Position numbers and translations under genes: made by a program. DNA of 32,000 nt. It comes from Candidatus Syntropharchaeum caldarium (GTDB lineage Archaea > Halobacteriota > Syntropharchaeia > Syntropharchaeales > Syntropharchaeaceae). Of this stretch, positions 8,690-24,817 are shown in pieces. How positions within the stretch are numbered: position 1 is the stretch's first letter; the number at the start of each line of letters is the position of its first letter. The stretch covers positions 210,001 through 242,000 of the forward strand of contig LYOS01000001.1 in assembly GCA_001766815.1 (NCBI GenBank). The letters run 5' to 3'. The notes beneath the pieces are model-generated. The model had not been told where the DNA came from. It searched no databases and saw only the letters and a list, made by a program, of their open reading frames with translations.

Positions 8690-9214
8690 ATGAATCGAAA
8701 AAGAATTGTTATCCTGAGGATCGGGCATAGGATTGGGCGAGATAAGCGCATTACAACACATATTGGGCTTGCTGCGCGGGCACTTGGTGCTTCAGGGATG
8801 ATCCTGACTTCAGAAGATCGTGAAGTTGAAAAAAGCATCAGTGATGTCGTATCCCGCTGGGGCGGAGATTTCTGGGTAAAGAGTGGATGTAGATGGCAGG
8901 ACGTTCTGAAGGAATGGGAAGGTGCTGTTGTTCATCTGACGATGTATGGGGAAAGTATCCTGAACCTTGAGGATGAGATCAGGAACTGCCCAAAGGATCT
9001 TCTTGTTATAATCGGGGCAGAAAAAGTCCCATTTAGTATTTACGAGCGTTCTGACTGGAATGTTGCAATTACAAATCAGCCTCACTCAGAACTTGCTGCG
9101 ATTGCGGTTTTTCTTGATCGAATACAGCAAGGAAATGAGCTTGAAGCAGATTTTGGTGGTCGAATTAGAATTGTTGGCAAACAAGTTGGGAAAGAGGTTA
9201 TAATCAATGAATGA
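8690..9214 (+). CDS. trm56: tRNA (cytidine56-2'-O)-methyltransferase (SPOUT)
   Basis: The N-terminus IVILRIGHRIGRDKRITTHIGLAARALGASGMIL and the ~175-aa length match aTrm56. The ATG directly abuts the secD stop. Confidence 0.8.
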   Translation: MNRKRIVILRIGHRIGRDKRITTHIGLAARALGASGMILTSEDREVEKSISDVVSRWGGDFWVKSGCRWQDVLKEWEGAVVHLTMYGESILNLEDEIRNCPKDLLVIIGAEKVPFSIYERSDWNVAITNQPHSELAAIAVFLDRIQQGNELEADFGGRIRIVGKQVGKEVIINE

Positions 9215-9479
9215 GAACATAAAGATACAGGTACTTGAACTTGTCGAACTCCACAGATCTGTGGTTGAAGGTGGAGGTGGTGCGCTATGCAGGAGGTTCA
9301 ATATACAGGCATCAAATCTTCTCGTTGAACTTGAGAACGAGGGTTTGGATGCTTTATCAGATCGGATGATGGATGTACTCTCACACTGCGCTGGCGCAAC
9401 ACGGGATGATGACGAGGGTGTGTGTAAGCACAGTGGGATGGTGCAGGGGATACTCGATGGGATGGAAAGTCGGATTTGA
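9207..9479 (+). CDS. hypothetical protein
   Basis: 90-aa ORF whose ATG overlaps the trm56 stop by 8 nt. I recognise no motifs. Confidence 0.3.
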   Translation: MNENIKIQVLELVELHRSVVEGGGGALCRRFNIQASNLLVELENEGLDALSDRMMDVLSHCAGATRDDDEGVCKHSGMVQGILDGMESRI

Positions 9480-9557
9480 AGTGGCGTTTATTGATAGACG
9501 TGCTTAGAAAATCTTATAACTTCTGGTGATGATGATAATTAAATTGGAGGTGACCAA

Positions 9558-10673
9558 TTGTCAAAGACGACTGTAAGTTTGATAAAGGCAGATATTGGAG
9601 GTTATCCTGGACATGCGAGTGTACATCCTGATTTGATTAAGCTTGCTGAAGAAAAACTGACTGATGCACTCAAATCAGGGCTACTGGTTGATTTTAAAGT
9701 GATGGCAGCAGGCGATGATCTGCAGCTTATGATGGGACACACAAAAGGTGTTGACAACCCAGAGATTCATAAACTCGCATGGGATACTTTTGTGGCAGGA
9801 ACCAATGTTGCAAAGGAGTTAAAACTATATGGTGCGGGCCAGGATATGCTTGCTGATGCATTCAGCGGCAACGTTAAAGGCATGGGGCCAGGCATCGCCG
9901 AGCTTGAGTTCACAGAAAGAAAGGGAGAACCACTCGTTGCATACATGATGGATAAAACCGAACCAGGTGCGTTCAACTTACCCATATTCAGGATATTCGC
10001 TGATCCATTCAACACAGCAGGGCTTGTTATAGACCCATCTGCTCATGCAGGTTTCAAATTTGAGATATGGGACATACAGGAGCACACACGGGTCTTCATG
10101 AATGCACCAGAGGAGATGTATGAGATGCTTGCTTTGATCGGTGCAAAGAGCAGATATGTTATAAAACGGGTATATCCGAAAGAGTCAAGTCCACTTCCAT
10201 CTGATGAAGCAGTGGCTGCGATAAGCACCGAGAAGTTGTTCCAGACTGCGGGCAAGTATGTAGGTAAGGATGATCCCGTGGCGCTTGTGAGGGCGCAGTC
10301 AGGATTGCCCGCACTCGGCGAGGTGCTTGAACCATTTGCATTCCCACACCTGGTGAGTGGATGGATGCGAGGGAGCCACAACGGACCTCTGATGCCTGTA
10401 AGCTTTGACAATGCAAGGTGCACCCGGTTTGATGGACCGCCAAGGGTCATTGCAGCAGGATTCCAGATCTCAAACGCCAGACTTATTGGACCTGTTGATC
10501 TATTTGATGATCCAGGATTTGATGAAGCAAGGCAGATTGCAGGTACGATTGCGACTTATATGCGAAGGCACGGTCCATTTGAGCCGCACAGGCTACCTAT
10601 GGAGGATATGGAGTACACAACATTACCAGATGTCCTGAAGAAACTTGAAGATAGATTTGAACCAATTGAGTGA
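9558..10673 (+). CDS. fbp: fructose-1,6-bisphosphate aldolase/phosphatase (class V FBPase)
   Basis: [18 protein letters not shown] is the characteristic N-terminus, and the ORF is 371 aa. The start is TTG 9558, 5 nt after ggaggtga. Confidence 0.9.
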
Positions 10674-10684
10674 ATAGGAGATTT

Positions 10685-12850
10685 ATGGAAGACGCGGAGG
10701 TCACACTGAAGGTACTGGAGGCGTACCACAGAGACGCAGGGCGAGGAATTGCCAGGATCGATATCAGGGTGATGCAGAAACTCAACCTTGTTAGCGGAGA
10801 TGTCATCGAGATCATCGGTAAGTCAAGAACTCCCGCGGTCGTATGGCCTGGCTACTCGGATGATACAGGTAAAGCTGTTATAAGAATAGACGGCAACATA
10901 AGAGGAAATCTTGGAGTTGGAATAGACGATAAGGTCGTGGTCAGGAAGGTTGATGCAAAAGAAGCGATTCGAGTTGCGATATCACCTACAGAACATCTGA
11001 GGATCGTGGGAGGAGATCGATACCTCCTCAAGATACTTGAAGGGAGGGCGCTCACAAAGGGCCAGAATATTCGGCTTGAGATGCTCGGTAACCCGCTGAC
11101 ATTTCTGGTAACTTCAACCACACCAAAGGATATCGTTGTCGTCACAAAAAACACCGAGATCGTATTGCGGGAACGAACCTTCGATCCTGAACAATATGGA
11201 TCACGCATGACCTATGAGGATGTTGGTGGGCTGAAACGAGAAATTGGACTTATCAGGGAGATGATTGAACTACCACTCAGACACCCTGGTTTGTTCCAGA
11301 AACTTGGGATAGAGCCTCCTCGTGGAGTACTGCTTCATGGACCACCTGGTACAGGCAAAACACTAATTGCAAAGGCTGTTGCAAGTGAAACGGACGCAAA
11401 TTTCATCTCGATCAGTGGACCCGAGATCATGAACAAGTTTTACGGTGAATCAGAGAAACATCTACGTGATATTTTTGATGATGCCGAAAAAAACGCCCCA
11501 TCCATTATTTTCATCGACGAGGTCGATTCAATTGCGCCAAAGCGCGGTGAAGTTACGGGAGAGGTTGAACGTCGAGTTGTGGCACAGCTTCTCGCACTCA
11601 TGGATGGACTCAAGTCGAGGGGCGAGGTTGTTGTGGTCGCTGCAACAAATAGACCTGATGCACTCGACGCGGCGATAAGACGGGGTGGGCGCTTTGACCG
11701 TGAGATCGAGATCGGAATACCCGACCAGCTCGGAAGGCTGCAGATCCTCCAGATTCACACAAGAGGTATGCCACTCGACAAAGATGTCGATTTTGAACCA
11801 ATCGCGGCTATGACACATGGATTTGTGGGCGCGGATATTGCAACGCTCTGCAAAGAAGCTGCGATGCATGCTCTGAGAAGAATCTTACCAAACCTCGATC
11901 TTGATGAAGATATCCCGCAGGAGATCCTCGATGAGTTGACCGTAACCCAGAGTGATTTCCTCAATGCGTTGAAGAATGTCGAACCGTCTGCCATGAGGGA
12001 GGTCTCTCTCGAGATACCAAAGGTGAGATGGGATGATGTAGGCGGCTTGAGCGAGGTCAAGGAAGCACTTAAGGAGGCGGTTGAGTGGCCACTCAAGTAT
12101 CCTGAACTCTTCAAGCAAGTGGGTGCAAAACCTCCAAAAGGTATCCTACTCTATGGTCCTCCTGGTACCGGTAAGACGCTGCTCGCAAAGGCGGTCGCGA
12201 ATGAGTCGGGCGCAAATTTCATCAGCATTAAGGGACCCGAGTTCTTCTCCAAATGGGTTGGCGAAAGTGAGAAGGCTGTCAGAGAGATCTTCAGAAAAGC
12301 AAAGCAGGCAGCACCATCAATCATTTTCTTCGACGAGATAGACTCGATCGCAACCTCAAGGGGTGCTACGCTCGATTCAAGCGCTACAGAGCGTGTTATA
12401 AGCCAGATACTTTCTGAGATCGATGGCATAGAAGATTTGAAGGATGTCATCGTGATCGCTGCGACAAACAGACCAGATCTCTTGGATCCAGCACTTTTTA
12501 GACCTGGCAGGATCGAACAACGGATTGAGGTTGGTGCCCCAGAAACAAAAGAAGCGCGGCTTGAGATAATAAAAGTTCACCTGCATGGTAAACAGATTGC
12601 GGATGATGTGGATCTTGATTGGTTTGCAAAGATTACTGAGGGTTTTGTAGGTGCAGACATCGAATTCATCTGTCGTCAGGCTCTTATGAATGCGATACGA
12701 GAATACATAAGGGCGCATCCAGATGAGGATATTCCGGCAGAGGAAGCAAAAAGTATAATAATAAGAAAGGAACATATAGATAATGCACTTGCAAAGGCAA
12801 AAGAATTTGAAGACTCAAAGGGGAAAGTCGGACTTGCGATGTATGCCTGA
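10685..12850 (+). CDS. cdc48: Cdc48/VCP-like AAA+ ATPase (two AAA domains)
   Basis: Two Walker A motifs are present ([15 protein letters not shown] and [15 protein letters not shown]), two Walker B motifs ([16 protein letters not shown]), and a Cdc48 N-domain ([19 protein letters not shown]). The ATG at 10685 follows aggag. The ORF track extends to GTG 10670. Confidence 0.9.
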
Positions 12851-12874
12851 TGTGAGTGCTGTGTTTAAGGGGGG

Positions 12875-12883
12875 ATAAATATA
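12875..12883 (+). promoter_or_regulatory. TATA-like box upstream of hsp20
   Basis: The sequence is ggggg-ataaatata, about 49 nt upstream of the GTG 12932 start. Confidence 0.35.
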
Positions 12884-12931
12884 GAAGAGAAAAGAGAACT
12901 TCTGGATCTCTATCTCAATCTCGATGAGGTT

Positions 12932-13279
12932 GTGAAGACGTTGATAGATGAGATTGAACACACAAAGAATAAAGACGGACGATCTCGTGAGGTTGTGATC
13001 GATCTGCCCGAAGAATTTACCCATGAACCACCACGAGATCCTATTGTGGATCTCTATGTTTATGATGGGATGGTTCATGTGACTTCCGAACTTCTTGGGG
13101 TTGATGCAGAGACGATCCAGGTAGATCTTACGGATCAGATGCTTGTTATACATGCAACAGGTGGTGCAAACATCCATACACGGGAGATATGGTTACCTGT
13201 TGCGGTTGAAAAAGAGGGGATCGAGAAGCACTATAAGAATGGTGTACTTGAAGTAATTCTAAAACAGCGAATGAGTTAA
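12932..13279 (+). CDS. Hsp20/alpha-crystallin small heat-shock protein
   Basis: The alpha-crystallin-domain pattern is present: VDLYVYDGMVHVTSELLGVDAETIQVDL...LVIHA...YKNGVLEVILK. Confidence 0.7.
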   Translation: MKTLIDEIEHTKNKDGRSREVVIDLPEEFTHEPPRDPIVDLYVYDGMVHVTSELLGVDAETIQVDLTDQMLVIHATGGANIHTREIWLPVAVEKEGIEKHYKNGVLEVILKQRMS

Positions 13280-13306
13280 TTGGACGATTAAAGGCGGTTA
13301 AATAAC

Positions 13307-14035
13307 ATGGAATATGATATCACGGGTGACAACCTTCAGATCGTGACGCTGCATCTTTCCAGTGGGGAAATGGTGTATGCTGAAGCTGGAGCCATGAATC
13401 ACATGAGCGCAAATATGCAGATGGAAGCAAAGGCGAGAGGGGGACTCCTGAAGGGAATTATGCGAAAGTTTGCAGGTGAGTCCTTCTTCATGACTGAGTT
13501 CACGCCCCAGGGCGGTCCTGGTTATGTGGCATTTGCAGGGAACGTACCAGGAAAGATTCGAGCCATACCACTCAAGGGAAATGACTTCATCGCGCAGAAG
13601 GATGCGTTTTTATGCGCCGAGAGCGGCGTGAACCTTGAGGTCACACTGACCAGGAAACTTGGTTCAGGTTTATTTGGCGGTGAGGGGTTCATCCTTGAGC
13701 GACTTAGCGGGGAGGGCACGGTATTCATCCATGCATGCGGAGACTTTGTTGAGATGGATCTTCAATCAGGTGAGGCTGTGATGGTTGATACAGGCTCTGT
13801 TGTGGGATTTGATGAGAGTGTGGACTATGATATCACAACAGCAGGCGGAATCAAGTCGATGCTCTTTGGTGGAGAGGGGATTTTCCTTGTGAAGCTGACA
13901 GGACCTGGTAAGATCATTCTCCAGTCACTCTCAATCGCAAACCTTGCAGCGGCACTTGCCCCACATATGCCATTCCAGCGAGGCGAAACTTCTGGAACCA
14001 GCGGGATAAATCTTGGAACGCTGCTTGGGGAATGA
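13307..14035 (+). CDS. AIM24/TIGR00266-family protein (DUF124)
   Basis: MEYDITGDNLQIVTLHLSSGEMVYAEAGAMNHM...GGEGFILERLSGEGTVFIHACG...GGEGIFLVKLTGPG shows the characteristic repeated GGEG motifs. Confidence 0.7.
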   Translation: MEYDITGDNLQIVTLHLSSGEMVYAEAGAMNHMSANMQMEAKARGGLLKGIMRKFAGESFFMTEFTPQGGPGYVAFAGNVPGKIRAIPLKGNDFIAQKDAFLCAESGVNLEVTLTRKLGSGLFGGEGFILERLSGEGTVFIHACGDFVEMDLQSGEAVMVDTGSVVGFDESVDYDITTAGGIKSMLFGGEGIFLVKLTGPGKIILQSLSIANLAAALAPHMPFQRGETSGTSGINLGTLLGE

Positions 14036-14263
14036 GACGTCTCGCAAAGACGATTCAGATATTTTCTGCCGGCTAAGTACGTATGTGGGTAAGAAGGATG
14101 TAGGTGGGATTAGGGAGTCCACTGGATGGCTTACAGATAAAGGGATGTATATGTGAACCTTGTTCGGGTATATCGAGAAATTTTGGGGATGTGCGAAGTG
14201 GGTTCGGGCATGAGTTGATAAGCAAAATGAGCGAGCGGAGCGTCCGCCAGAGGCGGGGCTACT

Positions 14264-15447
14264 ATGATTCCGAAGAACATAGAAAGAGAAGACGTTATTA
14301 AAGTAATGGAGGAAATCAAAAGAAATGGAATCCCAAAGGGTAGGGATTCAAGGAAATTTCTCTTGGAATTTGATGGAGAATGTTACCCTCCTAAATATGT
14401 TATTTCATTAGCCAATAAGTATGCTAATGGCGAAATATTAGATTCTGCACAATTTAGCGGAGGGAAAGAAACAAATGACTTTCTTAGAAATCTTGGCTTT
14501 AATATTATAGAACTCTCAAAGGCAAAGAAAGAGAGAGAAAGAACAAATATCCATCAAGGTGAAAGATGTCCAAAGTGTAAAGAAACCATTAGAAAACTTT
14601 TAGAAAAGATTTATGGAAGAGTTGAGGAAAACTATAAGTTTAGAGTTGGAACTCTCCCAGAAGATTTTAAAAACACTCCATATTATAGCGAATTGAAAAA
14701 AATTTACGAGAAACTCCAAAATCATAGAGGATATAAAGATTTCGTTAAAGCAAAAACTCTTCCAAATTGCGATTTCTTTGTTCCGAATCCGGGATTCATT
14801 GTAGAGTTTGATGAATCACAACATTTCACATTACCAAGAAAAATAACTTTGGGGGAATACCCTACTAACCTTGAATTGGGATTCAGTAAAGAGAAATGGA
14901 TAAGGTTATGCGAAAAAATTGATGCCAAGGATAACGATCCTCCTTATAGAGATGAACAACGCGCATGGTATGACACTTTAAGGGATTTTCTACCAACAAT
15001 ATTAGGTTTGCAACCTACTGTTAGATTATTTGCCAAAGATTTTATCTGGTGCAGTTTGAATCCCAACAATCCAGAAGATGTTGATAGATTCCAAAAAATG
15101 ATAGAATTAGGATCAAAATATTGGAAGATTCAGGTAAAGGAAGATCCCAACCCATTTTTGGCAAGAATAATTATTGCCGATGATTGGAGAGGAGAGCCTG
15201 AAGAGGCAAAGAAATTACTGGAAAACATCTACCAGAAATGGCCAAAAGGTAAAAAAGTAAAATTTATTATAACGTGTGGAGGATTTATTCAATTTGAATG
15301 GCCAAGGTCTGTGTCTAAAGAAACGATCGGCGATTCCAAAAATCCTAACAATAGAGTCGTAAATATTCTGGTTGCTAAAGCAAAAGAATCTATAAAATCA
15401 GTCTTAACAGAAAACTTGCGCAATAAATTGCAAGAGGTAACAGATTA
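14264..15447 (+). pseudogene. 5' part (codons 1-394 plus the TA of codon 395) of an IS-interrupted multi-domain gene with a restriction-type N-terminal module and a Vsr/DUF559-like endonuclease core
   Basis: The ORF runs into the IS at 15448. N-terminal motif: GIPKGRDSRKFLLEFDGECYPPKYVISLANKYANGE...FSGGKETNDFLRNLGF. Nuclease-like motif: CDFFVPNPGFIVEFDESQH (nt 14768-14824), followed by RDEQRAWYDTLRDFL...VRLF. Removing 15448-16531 restores the frame into 16532 onward. Confidence 0.75.
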
Positions 15448-15493
15448 TAGTATTAGACAAAACATTTTTAACTAACAAGTACAATTTACCTGT

Positions 15494-15859
15494 ATGGGAC
15501 GAAGACCTGAAAAAGAAGTTGTTAAGTGGCTGACCCTGGAAGAGCTGAACGAAGAGATTCGAAGTCGAAAAGTATGCGCAGAAGTCCTCAGAAAACTTTT
15601 CTTCATCAAAGAACTCTACAAAGGAGCAACTGTTCCAAAAGCAGCTAAAGAGGTGGGGGTAAGCAAAGTCATAGGCTATGTGTGGCTTGAGAACTGGAAC
15701 GAGAAAGGATTGGAAGGACTCAAACCGAATTATGGTGGAGGTAGACCTTCAGAACTGACTGAAGAGCAGAAAGAAGAACTCAAGAAAATACTTGAGAAGA
15801 GAGATGACTGGACCACAAGAGAAGTAAGAGAGTTCATCAATGAGGAGTTTGGTGTTTGA
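15494..15859 (+). pseudogene. IS630 transposase orfA (HTH part), truncated in copy A by a 1-nt T-run insertion
   Basis: It is 121 aa versus 160 aa in copy B. Copy A has ggtgTTTgaa (15851-15860) where copy B has gatgTTgaa. Confidence 0.75.
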
Positions 15860-15948
15860 ATACAGCATAAGGCATCTCAGCAGAATACTGAAATCGTTTG
15901 GGATGAAGTACTCAAAACCCTATCAGCAAGATTACAGAAGACCTGAAA

Positions 15949-16509
15949 ATGCTGAAGAAGAGCTTAAAAAAACTTGATGAGCTTGATACTGATCTGAAAG
16001 AATGCATTATAGGATTTCTGGATGAGACTTCACCTCAACTCACCTCAAATACCCAACGCTTGTGGTCATTCAATAAACCAGCTGTTAAGAAGAACACCAC
16101 AAAGATGAGAGCAAATACCTTCGGTTTCTATGCAATAAATGGGGAGAGTGTTGTAGATTTTAAAGAAAATTCAAAGAAGGAATCTGTATGTGAGTTTCTG
16201 GAGAGGATAAGAGAAAGAAATCCAGAGAAGACCATAGTAATCATTCTTGATAACTTCAGATCACACTGGGCTAAGAAAACAAGGAGAAAAGCAAGAAAGC
16301 TGAACATCATTCTTGTCTTCCTACCGCCTTACTCACCTGATCTAAATCCAATTGAGCAGATCTGGAGAATCATAAAGAGAGTTCTTTCACCTCTCTCCAT
16401 CAAAACATTGCATGAGCTTAAAAAAGTCATCTCGAAGAGTTTTTATGAGCTAACACAAAGGATCAGCTTTGCAGAAAAGTGGATTAAGAAGTTCTTGAAT
16501 ATTGGTTAA
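15949..16509 (+). CDS. IS630 transposase orfB (DDE catalytic part), copy A
   Basis: Motifs are IIGFLDETS, IVIILDNFRSH and FLPPYSPDLNPIEQIW (the IS630/Tc1-mariner DDE signature). It is 100% identical to 17339-17899. Confidence 0.8.
   Translation: MLKKSLKKLDELDTDLKECIIGFLDETSPQLTSNTQRLWSFNKPAVKKNTTKMRANTFGFYAINGESVVDFKENSKKESVCEFLERIRERNPEKTIVIILDNFRSHWAKKTRRKARKLNIILVFLPPYSPDLNPIEQIWRIIKRVLSPLSIKTLHELKKVISKSFYELTQRISFAEKWIKKFLNIG
15966..15972 (+). promoter_or_regulatory. A7 slippery run in the orfA/orfB overlap (candidate recoding or transcriptional slippage site), copy A
   Basis: The sequence is gag ctt aaa aaa act tga. orfB is in the +1 frame relative to the orfA frame defined in copy B. 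Confidence 0.4.
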
Positions 16510-16531
16510 GTTTGTTATGGTAGATACTATA

Positions 16532-16937
16532 TATAACTTTAGGTGTAGATTCGTATAAGGAGAAAATATCAACAACTCAGAATTATATTAATCAACCACA
16601 CATCGAACTTGTGTTCTTGGTTGATTTAAGAAATAACAAATTTTACTGGACTGGAAAGTCTTACCCAACACCGAACCAACAAAATGGGTTAGTAAGAATT
16701 GCAGATTTAAAAACTCACTTCTTTAACTTAGATGTCGGAAAGGTTATGATATTGGGTTGCCATGACTTAACTATATTTAACCCGAGATCTAAAAATGCTA
16801 AAAGATGGCGTAAAGACGTGAATGAAAGGTTTAAGAAAATCGCAAAAGAAGAAAAGCCCAAAATTGTATTACAACATCCACACACTATGGTAAAAGTCAG
16901 AACTTGGCTTAATGCATGGAGTTGTCTAAAGAAAATG
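16532..16937 (+). pseudogene. middle part of the IS-interrupted gene (C-terminal domain with K...GCHD motif), ending at the palindrome loop
   Basis: It is in frame with 14264-15447 once the IS and one TA are removed (...EVTDY|ITLGVDSYKEK...). It contains NNKFYWTGKSYP and GKVMILGCHDLTIFNPRS...IVLQHPHT. The track's ORF 16611-16979 is the tail of this frame running into the inverted arm. Confidence 0.7.
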
Positions 16938-17316
16938 AAGCCAAGTTCTGACTTTTACCATAGTGTGTGGATGTTGTAATACAATTTTGGGCTTTTCTTC
17001 TTTTGCGATTTTCTTAAACCTTTCATTCACGTCTTTACGCCATCTTTTAGCATTTTTAGATCTCGGGTTAAATATAGTTAAGTCATGGCAACCCAATATC
17101 ATAACCTTTCCGACATCTAAGTTAAAGAAGTGAGTTTTTAAATCTGCAATTCTTACTAACCCATTTTGTTGGTTCGGTGTTGGGTAAGACTTTCCAGTCC
17201 AGTAAAATTTGTTATTTCTTAAATCAACCAAGAACACAAGTTCGATGTGTGGTTGATTAATATAATTCTGAGTTGTTGATATTTTCTCCTTATACGAATC
17301 TACACCTAAAGTTATA
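16938..17316 (-). pseudogene. inverted duplicate of gene fragment 16532-16910
   Basis: It is the reverse complement of 16532-16910. The ORF 16926-17237 translation is identical to 16611-16979 over 100 aa. Confidence 0.85.
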
Positions 17317-17338
17317 TATAGTATCTACCATAACAAAC

Positions 17339-17899
17339 TTAACCAATATTCAAGAACTTCTTAATCCACTTTTCTGCAAAGCTGATCCTTTGTGTTAGCT
17401 CATAAAAACTCTTCGAGATGACTTTTTTAAGCTCATGCAATGTTTTGATGGAGAGAGGTGAAAGAACTCTCTTTATGATTCTCCAGATCTGCTCAATTGG
17501 ATTTAGATCAGGTGAGTAAGGCGGTAGGAAGACAAGAATGATGTTCAGCTTTCTTGCTTTTCTCCTTGTTTTCTTAGCCCAGTGTGATCTGAAGTTATCA
17601 AGAATGATTACTATGGTCTTCTCTGGATTTCTTTCTCTTATCCTCTCCAGAAACTCACATACAGATTCCTTCTTTGAATTTTCTTTAAAATCTACAACAC
17701 TCTCCCCATTTATTGCATAGAAACCGAAGGTATTTGCTCTCATCTTTGTGGTGTTCTTCTTAACAGCTGGTTTATTGAATGACCACAAGCGTTGGGTATT
17801 TGAGGTGAGTTGAGGTGAAGTCTCATCCAGAAATCCTATAATGCATTCTTTCAGATCAGTATCAAGCTCATCAAGTTTTTTTAAGCTCTTCTTCAGCAT
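17339..17899 (-). CDS. IS630 transposase orfB (DDE part), copy B
   Basis: It is identical to 15949-16509 and lies in the +1 frame relative to orfA. Confidence 0.8.
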   Translation of the reverse strand: MLKKSLKKLDELDTDLKECIIGFLDETSPQLTSNTQRLWSFNKPAVKKNTTKMRANTFGFYAINGESVVDFKENSKKESVCEFLERIRERNPEKTIVIILDNFRSHWAKKTRRKARKLNIILVFLPPYSPDLNPIEQIWRIIKRVLSPLSIKTLHELKKVISKSFYELTQRISFAEKWIKKFLNIG

Positions 17900-18353
17900 T
17901 TTCAGGTCTTCTGTAATCTTGCTGATAGGGTTTTGAGTACTTCATCCCAAACGATTTCAGTATTCTGCTGAGATGCCTTATGCTGTATTCAACATCAAAC
18001 TCCTCATTGATGAGTTCTCTTACTTCCCCTGTGGTCCAGTCATCTCTCTTCTCAAGTATTTTCTTGAGTTCTTCTTTCTGCTCTTCAGTCAGTTCTGAAG
18101 GTCTACCTCCACCATAATTCGGTTTAAGTCCTTCCAATCCTTTCTCGTTCCAGTTCTCAAGCCACACATAGCCTATGACTTTGCTTACCCCCACCTCTTT
18201 AGCTGCTTTTGGAACAGCTGCTCCTTTGTAGAGTTCTTTGATGAAGAAAAGTTTTCTGAGGACTTCTGCGCATACTTTTCTACTTCGAATCTCTTCGTTC
18301 AGCTCTTCCAGGGTCAGCCACTTAACAACTTCTTTTTCAGGTCTTCGTCCCAT
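17871..18353 (-). CDS. IS630 transposase orfA (HTH DNA-binding part), copy B
   Basis: 160 aa. It differs from copy A at T46A, R109G, F114L and G120D, plus silent changes. Confidence 0.75.
   Translation of the reverse strand: MGRRPEKEVVKWLTLEELNEEIRSRKVCAEVLRKLFFIKELYKGAAVPKAAKEVGVSKVIGYVWLENWNEKGLEGLKPNYGGGRPSELTEEQKEELKKILEKRDDWTTGEVRELINEEFDVEYSIRHLSRILKSFGMKYSKPYQQDYRRPENAEEELKKT
17876..17882 (-). promoter_or_regulatory. A7 slippery run (T7 on the + strand) in the orfA/orfB overlap, copy B
   Basis: The context is the same as at 15966-15972. It lies immediately 5' of the orfA stop (act tga). Confidence 0.4.
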
Positions 18354-18401
18354 ACAGGTAAATTGTACTTGTTAGTTAAAAATGTTTTGTCTAATACTAT
18401 A

Positions 18402-18642
18402 CATTAATTTAAACATGATAGATCGTAAGATGATAGATAGGGATTTCAAGCGACTCGACTCTCTGATTAAACGATTACTGAAAAACAATTCTACTATATC
18501 TGGAGTTATCGTCACAACTGAGTATTTTGTAAAAGATGTCCAAGGGTACATTTATTCCCATAAGGCAAGAGTTATTAGAAATGAATGGGCAAAATACTCG
18601 CTACCATCAGAATTTGAAATAGTTGGAGAAAAAGGCAATTAA
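18402..18642 (+). CDS. AT-rich open frame abutting IS copy B; either the orphaned 3' end of a disrupted gene or a small hypothetical protein
   Basis: The frame is open through the IS/TA junction and ends at 18642 (...IDRDFKRLDSLIKRLLKNN...IVGEKGN*). The track's start at 18382 lies inside the IS terminus, so it is not a credible native start. Its composition matches the 14264 gene. Confidence 0.3.
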
Positions 18643-18647
18643 TTAAT

Positions 18648-18842
18648 GCGAAAGATTGCTTTGCGATTTTCGCACTACGCGCACTGTCGTTCGCTGTGTA
18701 TAACAGGAGTGCAGTGGAGCGATTTAACGCCTGGATTGAGTCATTCAAGAGGATACTGGTGAGATTCGAGCGGCTGGCGGTGTGCTTCATGGCGGCTGTC
18801 AATTTGGCATGCATCAGGATGGTACTGAGGGTTTTGAAATGA
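18648..18842 (+). pseudogene. C-terminal remnant of an IS5/IS4-type DDE transposase
   Basis: There is no start codon, and the frame is open only from 18618. The translation ...SFAVYNRSAVERFNAWIESFKRILVRFERLAVCFMAAVNLACIRMVLRVLK* matches the conserved Y-x-R-x-x-VE-x-F-x-x-K-x-F-R-x-x-x-R-(Y/F)-E(K/R) C-terminal signature of IS5-family transposases. Confidence 0.6.
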
Positions 18843-19072
18843 GTTCATTGTAATAACCGGCGGTGTGCTGGCAGTAATGTGAAGTTTCACCAGTGCAATT
18901 ATCTCTGCGCAGCGGAGTGTAAGCTTATGCCATGTTTCGCATAACCCATGTGCTTGGTGAGGCATACCGGTGCTTTTTGATGCCATCCAGGATCATCACA
19001 GTTCTCGCAAAGTTTTAAATACTACATGTTATATATATCTAACACAAGGTTAGAAATAAATAACTTCTGAAG

Positions 19073-19471
19073 GTGATGTGTATGGATAGAAAATATGGAT
19101 ATGGTCTGGCTCTGGGAATACTGATGTTGTTAGGGACGATTTTATCGTCTTTGCTGTGGAATAAATTGGATCCAACCATCGTTACAATAGCAATAACTGT
19201 GGGCATAATTTTGATCGCATCCATTCTCATCAGACTCATCAAATACAGAGATCTGCCTGAGAAGGATGAGAGGACGGTAAAAATATCTAATGCCGCGCTG
19301 AGCTATTCATGGTTTCTCACATTGATCTTTATTTCTGTGCTCTTCTGGGTGGACTATCTTGACGTCGTTGAGATGACCGTGGCAGAGGTGATTGGAGCTA
19401 TATACTTTGTGATGATCGCTCTTGCTCTTGTTTTTGTGCGGTATTTCAGCTGGAAGGGTGATGTGGAGTGA
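19073..19471 (+). CDS. DUF2178-like four-TM membrane protein
   Basis: 132 aa with four hydrophobic segments and a central RLIKYRDLPEKDERTVKISNAA loop. It sits beside a small XRE regulator, as is typical for this family in my recollection. The start is ambiguous (GTG 19073, ATG 19076 or ATG 19082). Confidence 0.45.
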   Translation: MMCMDRKYGYGLALGILMLLGTILSSLLWNKLDPTIVTIAITVGIILIASILIRLIKYRDLPEKDERTVKISNAALSYSWFLTLIFISVLFWVDYLDVVEMTVAEVIGAIYFVMIALALVFVRYFSWKGDVE

Positions 19472-19584
19472 GAATCAAACGAGATGAGAATATCCTGCGT
19501 TTTTTGGTACCGCCTATCTCATACCGTAGGGATCTGATCGTGGATTATGTTTCGATGATACCATAATCAAAGGGGCGAAATCGT

Positions 19585-19788
19585 GTGAAAACCCGAATTA
19601 AAGAATTACGAGCAAAGTTCAATCTCACACAGGGAGAACTCGCGAAAAAGGTGGGTGTCAGGCGGGAGACGATTGTATTTCTTGAGAAGGGGAAGTACAA
19701 TCCATCGCTCAAATTAGCTTACAATATTGCAAAGGTTTTTGGGGAAAGAATAGAGGATATTTTTATCTTTGATGAAGAGCAAAAGTGA
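19585..19788 (+). CDS. XRE-family (YozG-like) helix-turn-helix transcriptional regulator
   Basis: [48 protein letters not shown] is a classic Cro/C1 HTH. The ORF is 67 aa with a GTG start. Confidence 0.75.
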
Positions 19789-20090
19789 CCTCACCCCGGA
19801 TTACTGAACTGAGGATTGATGTGTAAAATTGCCTGTGAAAGATCTCCTGTGATCGCACTCAAAGACTCGGTTACAGATGTCATCGGCTGTTCCCAATGGA
19901 AAGATATTCACTGAGATACTGGCAAACTATAGCCAGGGGTTTCAGTATATCTATGAAGAAATCCTTGAATAGTTTGGCAGATGCGACGATATCGATTTTA
20001 CGTATCCCACGTGGCGGATTTCTGACAACCAGCGGGAAGGAAAGACCGGAAATCGTGGATGCGATTTAAAACTTAGCAGGTAGAGTTAGG

Positions 20091-20098
20091 TTTATATC
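20091..20098 (+). promoter_or_regulatory. TATA-like box upstream of 20120
   Basis: tttatatc lies 22-29 nt upstream of GTG 20120. This would imply a leaderless or very short-leader mRNA. Confidence 0.3.
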
Positions 20099-20119
20099 TC
20101 TCGACCAGAAGGTTCTTCT

Positions 20120-21463
20120 GTGGATATTGAAGGATATGCAAAGCGGATGCTTGGAAAGGATGTTTCTGCTGATGCCATCAAGAAAGAACTTTCAAAGCGG
20201 ATCATTGAAATAAAAGGCGACCGCGTAAGTGAGGATTATGCGATACAACTCGCAGAGGCCGTTATCAAAGAGGCAACTGCCACAATCAACCCGAAAGATG
20301 CTCTTCTGAAAAGTCCTGTCACGAATGTTACAATGGGTGAGTTTGGCGTTGGCTCTCGGGGCAGTGGCGACTTCTACCTGCATGAGAAGATCGGTGAACT
20401 CCTGGGCGAAACCTCGGCGGTCGTTGATTCGAGAGAGCTCGACGATTCAGGGGTTGTTGAGGGGGGTGGTGAGTTCATCGTTCTTACCGTGGATGGGATA
20501 CACTCAAGACTGAGCGACTATCCTTTCATTGCAGGATTTCATGTGGCCCGAGCAGCGCTGAGAGATATCTATGCGATGGGTGCAACACCTCTTGCCATGC
20601 TATCAGATATTCATCTCGCGGATGATGGCGATGTCGGAAAGATATTCGATCATATAGCAGGCATAGCGGCGATTTCAGAACTTACGGGCGTTCCACTTAT
20701 AACAGGGAGCACGCTTCGAATCGGTGGAGATATGGTGATCGGTGAGCGGATGACGGGTGCAGTGGGAGCGGTTGGAATCACGGATCGCATCACGGCAAGA
20801 AGAAGCGCAGAACCCGGAGACCTGATCCTTATGTCAGAGGGTGCAGGGGGTGGTACTATCTCCACGACCGCGCTGTACTATGGCGAGGAGGATATTGTCT
20901 GGGAGACGATGAATGTGAAATTTCTGGATGCATGCAGTGCGTTGATAGAGCACGGGCTCAATCGTGAGATCCATTCAATGAGCGATGTTACAAATGGCGG
21001 AATCAGAGGAGATGCAGCAGAGATTGCAAAGGTTGCAGGTGTTAAACTCCTCTTTTATGAGGATAAGATCCGGTCGCTTGTAAATCAAAGGGTCCTTGAC
21101 CTTCTTGAAAGGCACAGAATAGATTATCTTGGGGTATCACTCGATGCGCTGCTTGTTATATCTCCTCGTGATCTATCATCGAAGATACTCGACGTTGTGC
21201 ATGATGCTGGTGTCAGGATGGATGTGATTGGTGAGGTTACAGAGGGAAATGGCTCAAGAATTGTTATCGATGGCAAAGAGCTGGATTTCACTCCCAGATT
21301 CAGAGAATCTGCCTACACACCGATAAAGAAAGTCGTTGGCGAGGTCGCTACTCAGGACTTTGATGAGATGAAGAAGGAAGTGGATCGGGGGGTTGAGGAT
21401 GCAAAGAGGAAGAAGGATTGGGTTGTTGAGAGGGTGAAAGGCACACGCCCTCATTTAATTTAA
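20120..21463 (+). CDS. AIR synthase-related (PurM/HypE/ThiL superfamily) ATP-binding protein
   Basis: FIVLTVDGIHSRLSDYPFIAGFHVARAALRDIYAMGATPLAMLSDIHLADDG is the PurM-like N-domain signature, followed by a PurM C-domain. It may be a methanogen-marker-type paralogue, but I cannot confirm that. Confidence 0.6.
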   Translation: MDIEGYAKRMLGKDVSADAIKKELSKRIIEIKGDRVSEDYAIQLAEAVIKEATATINPKDALLKSPVTNVTMGEFGVGSRGSGDFYLHEKIGELLGETSAVVDSRELDDSGVVEGGGEFIVLTVDGIHSRLSDYPFIAGFHVARAALRDIYAMGATPLAMLSDIHLADDGDVGKIFDHIAGIAAISELTGVPLITGSTLRIGGDMVIGERMTGAVGAVGITDRITARRSAEPGDLILMSEGAGGGTISTTALYYGEEDIVWETMNVKFLDACSALIEHGLNREIHSMSDVTNGGIRGDAAEIAKVAGVKLLFYEDKIRSLVNQRVLDLLERHRIDYLGVSLDALLVISPRDLSSKILDVVHDAGVRMDVIGEVTEGNGSRIVIDGKELDFTPRFRESAYTPIKKVVGEVATQDFDEMKKEVDRGVEDAKRKKDWVVERVKGTRPHLI

Positions 21464-21534
21464 TTTTGTAACTTCACCTCAGATCATATCTATTTAACGT
21501 TACCATTGTGCCTGAAGCACGAGTGATTTCGATA

Positions 21535-21548
21535 AAGATATAAATAAT
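21535..21548 (+). promoter_or_regulatory. TATA-like box upstream of 21589
   Basis: aagatataaataat lies about 45 nt upstream of the ATG. The SD-like ggaggg sits at 21578-21583. Confidence 0.35.
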
Positions 21549-21588
21549 ATGGTGAAAAGTTAGTCAAGAATCTGATTGGAGGGAAATA

Positions 21589-22695
21589 ATGAAGCTTGTT
21601 GTTATTGGTTGTGGATTTGCGGGTGTTGAGGTTGTGGGAGCCATCAGAAAGTTGCTCTCAAAGGATGAACTCGAGATAACGATGATAGATCCTCGCACGA
21701 GGCTGGAATATCAGGCATCACACCCAGAGATCCTGAGTGGAAAGGTGACACCTGAAGAGATCTCCGGGGACTTAGCTAAATTTGCAGCAAAGCATGATGC
21801 AACGTTCGTGAACAAAGCGGTTGAGAGTGTTGATTTCGATAAGAAAGTTGTTAAAGTCGGGGAGGAGGAGATTCCTTATGACTATCTTGTGATCGCAACT
21901 GGAGGACAGTGTACTTTCTTTGGCGTACCTGGTGCAGACAAGTCCTACACCGTCAATACTCTTGCTGATGCAGTGAGAACAAGGAAAGCCCTTGAAAAAC
22001 TCGATCTGAACAAAGAAGTCAAGATCGCGGTCATCGGCGCAGGTTTAACCGGTGTTGAGGTTGTTGGAGAACTCAACGACTACTTCAAGGAGAAGAACGC
22101 CAAAAATGCCAAAATATATCTCATTGAAGCGATGGACAAAGTGTTACCTCCGTTCAAAGATAACGTATCCAATTATGTCAGGAAGTTCTTCGAGGATCGA
22201 GGTGTGGAGATTATGACCTCAAAAGGTGTAAAGAGCATAGATGGCGGCCATATTGTACTTGCTGATGGCACCGAACTCGATACCGATATGGTGATCTGGA
22301 CGTGCGGCATCCAGTGCTCTTCATTAGCAACCACTTTTGGCCTCGAGAACGTACGTGGCTGGATTGTTACCGATGAATACCTGCGGGCCAAGGGTAAGGA
22401 TGACGTCTTCGTGATCGGTGATGCGGCATCTGTTGAGATCGATGGCGTGCTCTGTGGTAAGAACGTCGAGGAGGCAGAGAAGCAGGGGCAGACCGCAGCT
22501 GTTAACATCGCAAACCTCATCAAAGGCAAGCCATTGAAGAAGTATAAACCTGTAAACACGGTCTCAGATCCACGCGCTTTCATATCGCTCGGAGAGAATA
22601 AAGCAGTGATGGTCTTCAAGGGCATGATGTTCAAATTCATGGCATACAGGCTCAAGAAGTTCATAGAGCACCACTACATGAAGCGGTTTGATTAA
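21589..22695 (+). CDS. FAD/NAD(P)-dependent oxidoreductase (NDH-2 / SQR-like pyridine nucleotide-disulfide oxidoreductase family)
   Basis: Two Rossmann motifs are present (VVIGCGFAGVEV and VIGAGLTGVEVVGEL), plus a C-terminal FVIGDAA motif. Confidence 0.7.
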   Translation: MKLVVIGCGFAGVEVVGAIRKLLSKDELEITMIDPRTRLEYQASHPEILSGKVTPEEISGDLAKFAAKHDATFVNKAVESVDFDKKVVKVGEEEIPYDYLVIATGGQCTFFGVPGADKSYTVNTLADAVRTRKALEKLDLNKEVKIAVIGAGLTGVEVVGELNDYFKEKNAKNAKIYLIEAMDKVLPPFKDNVSNYVRKFFEDRGVEIMTSKGVKSIDGGHIVLADGTELDTDMVIWTCGIQCSSLATTFGLENVRGWIVTDEYLRAKGKDDVFVIGDAASVEIDGVLCGKNVEEAEKQGQTAAVNIANLIKGKPLKKYKPVNTVSDPRAFISLGENKAVMVFKGMMFKFMAYRLKKFIEHHYMKRFD

Positions 22696-22748
22696 ATACC
22701 TTTCATACCATACTTGGCGGAGGTCGTAGAGTTCAGGTAGTCTATTCA

Positions 22749-23471
22749 TTGCAGGATCCTGCGGGGTCAACTATTGCATATGCCCTGAGAGAAAAAGGGA
22801 AGGAGGTGCTCGCTGTTAGTGAGAGCCTCCTTTATCTTGAGGATGTCCCGGATACTGATCTGATAATATTTGCGTCACGTCATAGCTCAGCGAGTAAGAC
22901 ACCATCTTTTACCGTTCATTCACCCGGCAATTTCCATCTGGCTGAGTTTGGAGGGGAACCTTTCACTCTTGGGATGGCTTCAGCGATCGCAAACCGCGTA
23001 TTTCTGGAAGAATTTCAGCGAAAAAGGTTTGGATTTGAGTCTTTTAATATTTCGCTCGAGGTTACCCACCATGGACCACTGCTCGGGGTTCCCTCAGTCT
23101 TTGTGGAGCTTGGAAGTTCAAGTGCAGAGTGGGAGAACATCGATGCGGCAAGGCTCGTTGCAGATGTGATTGTGAGCGGAATGAATCGGCTTGAAGAGAT
23201 GGAGGATCTTGAAGTGGGAATCGGTTTTGGTGGTGGGCATTATGCACCGAAGTTCACAAAGTACATCCTCAATGAGGAGTGTGCAGTATCTCATATCTGT
23301 CCAAACTATCATATGCAACACCTGAACAGAGATCTGATCGATGAGATGCTCAGAAAGACCGCAGAAGACGTCGAGGTTGCACTCATCGACTGGAAAGGTA
23401 TGAAAAAGATCGAAAGAGATCGATTGATCAAGATGCTCGATGAGATCGGGATTGATTGGAGGCGGATTTAG
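22749..23471 (+). CDS. dtdA: archaeal-type D-aminoacyl-tRNA deacylase
   Basis: IIFASRHSSASKTPSFTVHSPGN...EVTHHGP...FVELGSS..EW...GFGGGHYAPKFT matches my recollection of Pyrococcus DtdA. The first canonical start (TTG 22749) appears to cut off the conserved N-terminal strand (see findings). Confidence 0.75.
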   Translation: MQDPAGSTIAYALREKGKEVLAVSESLLYLEDVPDTDLIIFASRHSSASKTPSFTVHSPGNFHLAEFGGEPFTLGMASAIANRVFLEEFQRKRFGFESFNISLEVTHHGPLLGVPSVFVELGSSSAEWENIDAARLVADVIVSGMNRLEEMEDLEVGIGFGGGHYAPKFTKYILNEECAVSHICPNYHMQHLNRDLIDEMLRKTAEDVEVALIDWKGMKKIERDRLIKMLDEIGIDWRRI

Positions 23472-24091
23472 TCATACTTAAGCTCAATCCTGTCGATCTC
23501 ATTGAGTAGAATAATGATGCAGTGGTCTGTATGGAGGACATTGGGACTGAGAGAGATTTTCTGGGCACCAAATTCCTCCAGAATCTTCTCATCATCTGCG
23601 TTCACTCCGATATGATCCCCGAGTACAAAGAGCGTCTCTTTCTGAAGCAGACTTTCAAGACTTTCATGCATCTCTCTTATGTCACTGGCCATCTCATGAA
23701 GATATATGATATTATCAAAGTTTTCATCCTCGATTAGATCACGAAAGTCACCTCTCCGTATCGTGATCCCGGGCGTACTTCGCTGCACCATTCCTCTTTT
23801 AAGTCCAACTCCCTTTTTCAACGCTATCCTGAGTAGTGCCCCTGTACTCCGTTCATCTGGGTTTAGATGTCGGAGGTACCTCCCATCAAGTGTTATGATC
23901 TTTGGTGGATCCCCTTCTCCTCGCATCAGGAGGTGAAGACGAACATCTCGCCTGATTCCATGTGAAAGTAGAAATGCCGAATTTATCGATCTGCACAAAA
24001 TATCAATTCGCCCTGACGTTCCCGGGATATCATTCAGACTGAACTCAGGGGTCGTAAGCGCTCTGTTTCCGATCACCAGAATATGTTTCAC
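23468..24091 (-). CDS. trmY: tRNA (pseudouridine54-N1)-methyltransferase (SPOUT)
   Basis: FSLNDIPGTSGRIDILCRSINSAFLLSHGIRRDV...LNPDERS is the TrmY/DUF358 signature. I prefer GTG 24091 (MKHILVIGNR, 207 aa) to the track's ATG 24190, whose extension is hydrophobic junk covering the divergent promoter. Confidence 0.75.
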   Translation of the reverse strand: MKHILVIGNRALTTPEFSLNDIPGTSGRIDILCRSINSAFLLSHGIRRDVRLHLLMRGEGDPPKIITLDGRYLRHLNPDERSTGALLRIALKKGVGLKRGMVQRSTPGITIRRGDFRDLIEDENFDNIIYLHEMASDIREMHESLESLLQKETLFVLGDHIGVNADDEKILEEFGAQKISLSPNVLHTDHCIIILLNEIDRIELKYD

Positions 24092-24120
24092 ATCATCACT
24101 TCTGCAGGGACAAAGATAAA

Positions 24121-24150: not shown

Positions 24151-24180
24151 CAATTTGCGTGGCAAGGAGGAGAAGGGATA

Positions 24181-24813: not shown

Positions 24814-24817
24814 ATCT

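Follow-up and report, generated by a model that had tools for sequence, protein, structure and literature searches.

A near-perfect palindrome of 2.96 kb lies on a 492-kb contig of the Candidatus Syntrophoarchaeum caldarius MAG and was examined here in a window of 32 kb, the whole stretch of DNA analysed. Its arms (15446–16913 and 16935–18401) face each other across a centre of 21–27 nt and consist of two inverted IS copies and fragments of a protein-coding gene, gene X.

Gene X, its IS elements and their surroundings

The 5′ part of gene X (14264–15447, + strand, 394 codons) encodes a ScoMcrA_N-family protein (PF26345). It is entered in GenBank as SCAL_000256, a 403-aa product with an IS-derived tail at its end, and the protein P0010 is 100% identical to the product of this 5′ part. 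The original prediction had proposed a search for the uninterrupted locus in relatives, and 11 uninterrupted homologues were recovered and compared: L003 and 10 sequences from JGI metagenomes. The 5′ part aligns to positions 648–1869 of L003 with 92% nucleotide identity. Once the IS and one TA are removed, the 379 nt carried by the left arm (16532–16910, + strand) continue the gene in frame, with 95% nucleotide identity to L003. The protein reconstructed in this way is 90% identical over 530 aa to the 586-aa P0001. The cargo had been predicted to continue the IS-interrupted gene, and this is what the alignments establish. Full-length relatives reach ∼586 aa, of which the window retains codons 1–529 only. 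The GC content of gene X is low, 33–34% (34% in the 5′ part) against 45–47% in the flanks, and the gene is a horizontal acquisition.

Without the insertion, the site in L003 is ...ACAGATTATATAACC...; in the window a 1082-bp insert lies there with a TA on either side (15446–15447 and 16530–16531). The alignments of the window to L003 overlap by TATA; the site itself is TATATA, so the exact duplicated dinucleotide is ambiguous. This comparison places the left IS within a TA of gene X, as had been claimed.

This left copy, IS-A (15448–16529, + strand), carries HTH_32 and DDE_3 domains (Pfam) on two transposase ORFs, 15494–15859 and 15949–16509. The first of these ends early because of an extra T at 15855, and an A7 run occupies 15966–15972. 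The right copy is 1081 bp long and its first transposase ORF (17871–18353, 160 aa) is intact. Both ORFs of the right copy match NCBIfam NF033545 with 106.8 and 141.6 bits (cut-off 100), and the transposase scores 6.9e-26 for DDE_3 and 7e-14 for HTH_32 in Pfam. The termini, TAGTAT...CA.AACA...TTAAC, form imperfect terminal inverted repeats. The transposase is a DDE enzyme of IS630/Tc1-mariner type whose HTH domains are N-terminal, and the lengths lie within the ∼1.0–1.4 kb of the family. By transposase type, TA duplication, terminal inverted repeats and size, both repeats are bona fide IS630-family elements, and their earlier assignment to IS630 holds.

The two arms mirror each other part by part. 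The left arm runs from the outer TA (15446–15447) through the IS (15448–16529) and the inner TA (16530–16531) to the gene fragment (16532–16910); the right arm runs from the gene fragment (16938–17316) through a TA (17317–17318) and the IS (17319–18399) to the last TA (18400–18401). The two outer TAs are the exact limit of symmetry, and the flanks beyond them (...ACAGAT and CATTAA...) share no relation. A repeat search resolved the palindrome into an inner pair of 1058 nt at 100% complementarity with 21 nt between (15856–16913/16935–17992) and an outer pair of 411 nt at 98% (15446–15856/17991–18401), and found no further repeats of similar size in the 32-kb window. Global alignment of the arms found eight mismatches and one 1-nt indel, all at 15566–15855, and one further mismatch at 16911/16937. 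Because of this last mismatch, the centre was counted as 27 nt (16911–16937) in the original prediction and as 21 nt by the repeat search. The palindrome, the order of parts within each arm and the end of symmetry at the IS terminus plus TA had all been read from the sequence beforehand, and repeat search and alignment agree with that reading. Folded as DNA, a 149-nt piece around the centre forms a hairpin of −71 kcal/mol versus −13.5 ± 2.8 kcal/mol for shuffles. A chance origin was rejected.

Beyond the right IS, no match to gene X was found. An unrelated intact ORF of 75 aa, ORF Y (18415–18642, + strand), starts 13 nt past the IS/TA boundary; its sole homologue, P0211, is also 75 aa long and is 83% identical. 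Its GC content of 33% matches that of gene X, which places ORF Y probably in the same acquired island. Next comes what is left of the C-terminus of a transposase of IS5 type (DDE_Tnp_1_2; 18696–18842, + strand; Pfam E = 0.016). The region around the palindrome is littered with defunct mobile elements.

On each side of the segment stands an IS copy whose ends are intact, the two in inverted orientation, and the first transposase ORF of the right copy is unbroken. These features could belong to a functional or mobile unit: a composite transposon moving a hairpin cargo, or a locus selected for a long hairpin RNA. The ∼1.08-kb IS length, TA duplication, DDE_3 transposase, A7 run as a putative frameshift site and inverted placement around a cargo are all shared with IS630-family insertion sequences and composite transposons. 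Here, however, what lies between the IS copies is a truncated pseudogene fragment, the neighbouring host gene copied as a hairpin, and one IS is a mosaic of two copies (see below). Gene X also runs across IS-A from outside to inside, so the unit was not brought in as one piece; with the left flank continuing inside it, the unit did not transpose as a whole. With nothing like gene X past the right IS and no second instance in the JGI metagenome scan, whose 10 matches were all native, a functional or mobile unit is very improbable, and the original statement that this is not an ordinary composite transposon stands.

The fold-back junction and the mosaic right IS

The 27-nt centre (16911–16937, + strand) is native gene X sequence encoding N-A-W-S-C-L-K-K-M, and is identical in L003 and the 10 JGI homologues; the loop that had been predicted is thus a piece of the gene itself. 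Within it, 16912–16913 can pair with 16935–16936, flanked by the 16911/16937 mismatch. Plus-strand homology to every homologue ends exactly at 16937. From 16938 onwards the window retraces its own reverse complement leftwards from 16910, and ∼57 codons of gene X are therefore missing relative to its ∼586-aa relatives, in line with the distal loss that had been suspected. The resulting right-arm cargo (16938–17316, − strand) is an inverted, 100% complementary copy of 16532–16910. After the ATG that ends the centre, all 11 native homologues read on as CTTCCA(A)TCGGTAGAG. The native continuation across the junction reads ...AAAGAAAATGCTTCCATCGG..., and the corresponding fold-back k-mer in the window reads ...AAAGAAAATGAAGCCAAGTTC.... 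At 16937|16938 the microhomology is ∼2 bp (AT/AT) and no more, with a terminal G.A mismatch next to it. Native stems close by that would pair better (CAT/ATG, CCA/TGG and ATGGA/TCCAT) predict junctions other than the observed one, and no pre-existing inverted repeat of more than 2 bp is visible in the 11 native homologues.

The right IS is composed of two unlike parts, both on the − strand. Its inner 674 nt (17319–17992) are identical to IS-A and are interpreted as a copy of it. Its outer 407 nt (17993–18399) carry eight substitutions, lack the extra T and represent another copy, IS-B; sequence inspection places a TA at the outer end of IS-B (18400–18401). All nine IS differences between the arms fall within the outer 411 nt (clustering P ∼1.6e-4), and the inner 674 nt contain 0 differences versus ∼15 expected at the rate of the outer part (P ∼4e-7). 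This confinement makes the right IS a mosaic whose outer end came from another copy. The IS is multi-copy in the sample, with at least three allele combinations, and a Logan contig of SRR3669912 (L005) carries both A-type and B-type alleles. At position 16343/17505 this contig has G, and both arms have A. IS copies from the same read set therefore vary in the inner part as well, and the inner identity is not mere family invariance. These observations directly support the earlier proposal that the structure was resolved in a second, inverted IS copy.

A collapsed repeat would also give a mosaic right IS, because the arm differences extend no further than a large-k de Bruijn graph could have phased them from the unique flanks: consecutive arm SNPs lie <127 nt apart across 15447–15855. 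It is possible, if doubtful, that the join at 16937|16938 is an artefact of library preparation, assembly or finishing, made by a snap-back chimera or a forced gap closure. The assembler might then have walked back through the collapsed IS and exited by the only compatible inverted edge, IS-B. The true genome would in that case keep the 3′ end of gene X and more sequence between its retained fragment and IS-B, an outcome we consider rather unlikely.

Inverted chimeras that arise in libraries or assemblies (MDA, snap-back reads and palindromic contig ends) show an abrupt fold-back, a short offset and little microhomology, as the archaeal palindrome does. Such chimeras are normally rare per site and found at contig ends. 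The archaeal junction, in contrast, is part of the consensus in the interior of a long contig, and its far side leads to a different IS allele followed by unique flanking sequence. The letter N is absent from the whole window, so the junction lies within a gap-free stretch of the 492-kb contig. As no k-mer is common to both sides, the junction requires real reads, and an in-silico k-mer mis-join is excluded or unlikely. The same grading applies to a missed SMRTbell adapter, since the centre is native, neither SMRTbell nor other adapter, and a missed-adapter read would turn symmetrically at the molecule end, without the 27-nt offset. Inversion-isomer mixing as the source of the palindrome is likewise excluded or unlikely. 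The original prediction had offered both a real fold-back and an artefact, and these exclusions narrow that choice. Rare chimeras should also lose to a full-depth native path.

In the Logan assembly of the same sample, contigs of SRR3669912 are 100% identical to the window and stop at 14062 and 18773, the right-hand one (L002) starting inside the IS5-type remnant. For 14063–18772 that assembly has nothing on record but the collapsed IS contig. This failure to span favours an artefact, as does the almost complete lack of microhomology at the junction. The organism made up ∼2% of cells in the Butane50 culture in a 2024 count (PMC11543930); as a minor member, it may have been covered only modestly, which also fits an artefact. 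On the other side, no protein with this gene copy's native continuation occurs in a 5.8-billion-protein collection that includes the sample's Logan contigs. This counts weakly against an artefact, as the collection may lack short contigs, and the fold-back product is not on record there either. With a low-abundance MAG, a finishing error or a rare chimeric molecule is plausible.

The fold-back junction could also be real and the right-hand link wrong, with the IS threaded to the wrong flank from 18402 onward, or the structure could be present only in a sub-population of a polyploid or strain-mixed culture. The allelic variety of the multi-copy IS and the inability of short reads to phase the inner 674 nt leave room for such a link, and the Logan breaks at 14062 and 18773 suggest repeats or heterogeneity at the island borders. 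Yet the IS-B alleles run uninterrupted into the flank at 18402, and the low GC content of both gene X and ORF Y, against 45–47% for the chromosome, fits one acquired island. We consider these possibilities improbable.

A fold-back model and its counterparts

We somewhat favour the view that the palindrome is a passive genomic scar, left by a fold-back at a break and homologous resolution in an inverted IS. It would belong to a known kind of rearrangement, and no function is evident. In this model, the first step, visible in the sequence, was the insertion of IS-A at a TA inside gene X. IS-B, ∼2–3% divergent, would have lain presumably nearby in the opposite orientation, at its visible insertion site 13 nt upstream of ORF Y. 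A chromosome break or replication fork collapse in the 3′ part of gene X may then have left a 3′ end at 16937. This end would have turned back onto the strand it belonged to and started synthesis at 16910, 27 nt further upstream. From there the new strand would have run back over the gene X fragment and on into IS-A, yielding a reverse-complement IS-A copy co-linear with IS-B across the break, a relationship that matches the sequence pattern. Annealing or recombination inside the IS, with a crossover between 17505 and 17993, could have sealed the chromosome. The product would be X5′-IS-A-S-loop-S′-IS(A/B mosaic)-Y, and would lack the final ∼57 codons of gene X as well as anything up to IS-B. 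The identity of the arms suggests that the event was recent. The native centre, the end of homology at 16937, the mosaic right IS and the distal loss all support this model. It is weakened by the 2-bp microhomology with its G.A mismatch, by nearby stems that predict other junctions, by the lack of an independent assembly across 14063–18772 and by the expectation that 1.47-kb arms with a 21-nt spacer attract hairpin nucleases.

A pathway of this kind is well characterised in both yeast and E. coli. The closest counterparts come from Saccharomyces cerevisiae, where experiments have documented a fold-back of single-stranded DNA into a hairpin and, after it, a secondary rearrangement through homology with a repeat in opposite orientation (Li et al. 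2020, PMC7467729). As in yeast, the junction links the sequence with the reverse complement of a stretch some tens of nucleotides further upstream, the inverted segment terminates in a mobile repeat and is resolved by recombining with an oppositely oriented copy, and distal sequence is lost. In MRE11/SAE2-proficient yeast cells the median loop is 35.5 nt, and loops of at least 15 nt escape Mre11-Sae2 surveillance (PMC7467729); the native, non-palindromic archaeal spacer of 21–27 nt belongs to this large-loop class. The shortest priming stem reported in yeast is 4 bp (PMC7467729), whereas the archaeal stem has 2 bp and a mismatch. Related evidence on S. cerevisiae fold-back inversions is given by Al-Zain et al. 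2023 (PMC10622511). Unlike the yeast events, the archaeal one has a duplicated arm of only 1.47 kb and is known from assembled sequence alone. The archaeal chromosome is circular, so neither a dicentric chromosome nor telomere capture would arise, unlike in yeast.

A snap-back, or tandem-inversion-duplication, model has reportedly been developed for Salmonella by the Roth laboratory. Palindrome-centred inverted chromosome duplications in Escherichia coli arise from a pre-existing palindrome or quasi-palindrome in sbcDC recA mutants (Darmon et al. 2010, PMC3315005). The model for these events, in which a 3′ end snaps back after break degradation or at a fork and replication creates an inverted duplication, resembles the one proposed here, and SbcCD or Mre11-Rad50-type nucleases are the expected antagonists in both. 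The archaeal locus, unlike the E. coli events, had no inverted repeat of more than 2 bp to start from, judging by the 11 native homologues.

There is about an even chance that this chromosomal, consensus-level palindrome in a thermophilic, slow-growing archaeon is a natural snapshot of fold-back-primed break repair completed between inverted IS copies. We know of no earlier archaeal example of fold-back-primed break repair completed by inverted-IS recombination. The IS had put gene X out of action beforehand, so the palindrome, real or artefact, is without bearing on the physiology of the organism. If an artefact, it would mark a mis-join inside the Ca. S. caldarius reference MAG and provide a recognisable signature of such errors. 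If real, it would be a clean, fully interpretable natural example of an archaeal fold-back inverted duplication, with an ancestral state that can be reconstructed from 11 homologues, a junction known to the base and a known crossover interval inside the IS. A pathway of yeast, E. coli and cancer genomes would then also shape archaeal chromosomes, with the IS as the resolving homology. The lineage would tolerate, for a time at least, an expected target of Mre11-Rad50/SbcCD-type nucleases, and the locus would serve as a natural case in which to test how Archaea tolerate palindromes.

Anatomy of the palindrome and its insertion sequences

The near-perfect palindrome of the original prediction was borne out in all details by a repeat search of the window and a global alignment of the arms. 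Its inner part, 15856-16913 paired with 16935-17992, is 1058 nt long, 100% complementary and separated by a 21-nt spacer; its outer part, 15446-15856 paired with 17991-18401, covers 411 nt at 98% complementarity. No second repeat of similar size occurs in the 32-kb window, which contains no N bases. The arms differ by eight substitutions and one 1-nt indel, all within 15566-15855, and by a further mismatch at 16911/16937. The 27-nt loop described at first (16911-16937) has the same centre as the 21-nt spacer, differing by the pairing possible for 16912-13 with 16935-36, which adjoin that mismatch. Symmetry ends, as had been noted, at the outer TA dinucleotides, beyond which the flanks are unrelated. 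As a DNA hairpin, the central 149 nt reach -71 kcal/mol (z-score -20).

The assignment of the arms to IS630 was upheld: against NCBIfam NF033545 (cut-off 100), the two ORFs for the transposase in the right copy reach 106.8 and 141.6 bits, and the IS carries the Pfam domains HTH_32/HTH_29 and DDE_3. The termini are imperfect inverted repeats whose first bases are TAGTAT. The overlap between the transposase ORFs falls on an A7 run (15966-15972 in the left copy, 17876-17882 in the right), a plausible candidate for the programmed-frameshift site of the IS630 transposase. The left IS (IS-A, 15448-16529) owes its length of 1082 bp to one extra T (15855), by which its first ORF is cut short. In the 1081-bp right IS (17319-18399) the first transposase ORF is intact, so this mosaic copy is the only one of the two that might still yield a transposase. 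An exact 27-nt pattern of the IS ends had no match in the genome contig collection, where the best match to the AIM24 protein encoded at 13307-14035 is only 91% identical; the source genome therefore apparently lies outside that collection.

Gene X and the fold-back junction

IS-A interrupts a low-GC gene of the ScoMcrA_N family, gene X, leaving a truncated ORF (14264-15475) that is 100% identical to OFV68580.1 (SCAL_000256), encoded on a 491,986-bp contig of the Candidatus Syntrophoarchaeum caldarius MAG. With IS-A and one TA removed, 14264-15447 joins 16532 onward in frame. The reconstructed protein shares 90% identity over 530 residues with P0001, an uninterrupted homologue of 586 aa (ScoMcrA_N, PF26345), and more than 100 relatives measure ~580-600 aa. 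The 379-bp cargo of each arm, taken earlier for host-gene sequence, is thus the continuation of gene X. The uninterrupted locus that was to be sought in relatives is present in L003, the ENA contig encoding P0001, which aligns to 14252-15449 at 92% and to 16530-16937 at 95% nucleotide identity, the two alignments overlapping on TATA. On this comparison, the empty site demonstrates a TA-duplicating insertion of IS-A and confirms that the left IS interrupts a host gene.

Along the plus strand, the alignment to L003 runs to 16937 and no further. In L003, as in each of ten JGI metagenome contigs that share the 32-nt centre, the sequence goes on as ...AAAATG CTTCCA(A)TCGGTAGAG...; that of the window reads ...AAAATG AAGCCAAGTTCTGAC..., the reverse complement of 16896-16910. 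The loop is therefore native gene sequence, not adapter, and the junction is 16937|16938, with AAAGAAAATGAAGCCAAGTTCTGAC as the fold-back string and AAAGAAAATGCTTCCATCGGTAGAG, give or take 1-2 mismatches, as the native continuation. It follows that ~57 gene X codons (the last ~170 nt of the gene, predicted peptide LPSVERYASAGRYYESDRNPSDYDGIDDVLSCTKHGDTIDFIVYLGGE) are missing, together with all sequence as far as the inner end that the right IS originally had, in line with the predicted loss of whatever DNA lay between 16937 and 18402. A scan of JGI metagenomes with the 32-nt centre revealed no further fold-back junction, the ten loci all being native. Exact-protein look-ups returned no record for the truncated gene X product or for an 86-aa ORF at 18382; those of two other proteins, P0210 and P0195, pointed to different samples.

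Gene X resumes inward of IS-A and is absent past the right IS. This excludes arrival as a composite transposon, in agreement with the earlier view that the structure is no ordinary one, and also speaks against a functional or mobile unit, which the palindrome can hardly be. Replicative intramolecular transposition is likewise excluded, as it copies the IS and not neighbouring host DNA and creates no 16937|16938 join.

Gene X was already dead through the insertion of IS-A. Two JGI contigs, L011 (1154-1424) and L014 (2118-2509), hold internally deleted mini-versions that keep only segments matching window 14254-14502, 15402-15450, 16530-16661 and 16835-16937; decay of the gene is therefore recurrent. 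Gene X is 90-95% identical at the nucleotide level in unrelated metagenome contigs (L003, L007, L015, L013, L006), and proteins of the family are named in MAGs from distant phyla: Dehalococcoidia, Odinarchaeia, Bathyarchaeia, TA06 and Thaumarchaeota. Together with a GC content of 33-34% in a 46% GC genome, this distribution points to recent and wide transfer. PADLOC and NCBIfam yielded no function for gene X, which is possibly defence-related.

The mosaic right IS and the artefact alternative

The nine differences between the IS copies are confined to the outermost 411 nt, and the arms agree completely over the 379-nt cargo and the 674 nt of inner IS sequence. Were differences uniform over the IS, such clustering would have a chance of ~1.6e-4. 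At the density of the outer part, the inner part should carry ~15 differences, and none is seen (P(0) ~4e-7). L005, a Logan contig from SRR3669912 that corresponds to 15567-16519 and stops 10 nt short of the IS terminus, has a private G at a site that is A in both arms (16343/17505), so the IS family is not invariant in its inner part. Given this variability and the clustering, the right IS combines the outer end of a second copy, IS-B (17993-18399), with a copy of the inner part of IS-A, as expected from the predicted resolution in a second inverted IS. The outer end of IS-B is natively joined to the flank at 18402, and it is improbable that a real junction is followed by a wrong or heterogeneous right-hand connection.

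The outer part of L005 mixes A-type (left-copy) and B-type (right-copy) alleles. From this collapsed contig, at least three allele combinations of the IS can be inferred in SRR3669912, and the dominant Ca. S. butanivorans possibly carries some of these copies.

The palindrome may well be genuine: a recent fold-back inverted duplication whose resolution took place in a second IS630 copy. An artefact of library, assembly or finishing is less likely but plausible, and several points speak for it. The IS-copy differences are spaced <127 nt apart, the first 119 nt from unique flank, so a de Bruijn assembler with large k could phase precisely this stretch, with everything else collapsed; a mosaic right IS would therefore also be expected from a collapsed repeat. 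Logan contigs from SRR3669912 are 100% identical to the window over 3859-14062 and 18773-31463 and end there. The host is also a minor community member: in the thermophilic butane-oxidising enrichment Butane50, Ca. S. caldarius made up ~2% of cells in a 2024 count (PMC11543930). Against these points, the native path, being at full depth, would normally prevail over a rare chimeric molecule, and the biological reading is for this reason rated somewhat higher. Neither the gene X 5′ product, the fold-back ORF nor the native continuation of the same copy is on record. The smallest Logan contigs met were ~950 nt and a ~480-nt unitig expected at the palindrome centre could be omitted, so this absence weighs little either way.

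Specific artefacts were excluded. A missed SMRTbell adapter conflicts with the native centre and the 27-nt offset, and an in-silico mis-join at a shared k-mer with junction sides that share none. Mis-joining of two inversion isomers, which the original prediction had allowed for, does not hold, since neither isomer contains the 16937|16938 join and their mixing does not duplicate adjacent host DNA.

Genomic setting and a proposed fold-back mechanism

The flanks encode archaeal housekeeping proteins at 45-47% GC (Cdc48, FBPase class V, Trm56, TiaS and an Sm-like (LSM) protein). Between ~14063 and ~19000, GC falls to 33-34% in gene X, 39% in the IS and 33% in ORF Y. A 48-aa plus-strand ORF (18696-18842) is, by Pfam, a remnant of the C-terminal end of an IS5-type (DDE_Tnp_1_2) transposase. 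In the closest relative available, Ca. Syntrophoarchaeum sp. 12019_3 (L017), synteny covers 9504-14072 only; none was found past 14072, hence this relative offers no empty-site reconstruction. Low GC, the IS5-type remnant and the end of synteny place the palindrome within an acquired island that holds many mobile elements. The Logan contig L001 stops at 14062, and nucleotide synteny just past the AIM24 stop codon, making 14033-14072 a probable island boundary, or else a repeat or heterogeneity point. Logan contig L002 starts at 18773, inside the IS5-type remnant, which suggests that part of the remnant is repeated elsewhere in the sample. On the island's right side, a DUF2178-like membrane protein (weak Pfam match) followed by a small HTH_3 (XRE-type) regulator (19073-19788) looks like a conserved two-gene module.

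ORF Y (18415-18642, plus strand, 75 aa) is intact, so IS-B lies 13 nt upstream of it and not within a gene. Its one homologue in 5.8 billion proteins, P0211, also has 75 aa (83% identity) and sits at a contig start beside a Nextera adapter; its ORF occupies L098 31-258, and the homology takes in a further ~60 nt of downstream sequence. No similarity past the gene X 3′ end was found across 13 homologous loci (L003-L004, L006-L016), and PADLOC and NCBIfam gave ORF Y no function.

The observed anatomy, ancestral sequence, exact junction and mosaic IS are most simply accounted for by a single proposed pathway. A break or fork collapse in the 3′ part of gene X would have left a 3′ end at 16937 that folded back and primed at 16910. 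DNA synthesis would then have run back over the gene X fragment and IS-A, producing an IS strand in reverse complement, co-linear with the inverted IS-B on the far side of the break. Annealing or recombination with IS-B, with a crossover between 17505 and 17993, would have restored chromosome continuity and deleted the intervening interval.

Experimental precedents exist for all parts of this model. In yeast, single-stranded hairpins near breaks give fold-back inversions; the median loop in MRE11/SAE2-proficient cells is 35.5 nt, loops of at least 15 nt evade Mre11-Sae2, and products are nearly always stabilised through homology-mediated secondary rearrangements with oppositely oriented repeats, single-strand annealing included (PMC7467729; see also PMC10622511). 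In E. coli, break degradation followed by snap-back and replication yields inverted duplications, suppressed by SbcCD and RecA (PMC3315005). However, yeast fold-backs use at least 4 bp of microhomology (PMC7467729), compared with only 2 bp and a retained terminal mismatch here, which favours an artefact. Better native pairings exist nearby, predicting other, unobserved junctions. Priming through CAT(16915-17)/ATG(16935-37), TGG/CCA or ATGGA/TCCAT and a two-step model (a larger palindrome, then a central deletion) were rejected, as they predict another junction or offer no better microhomology.

To our knowledge, no fold-back inverted duplication of this kind has been described in Archaea. The palindrome, which has no evident function, adds a further example to a type of rearrangement already known.
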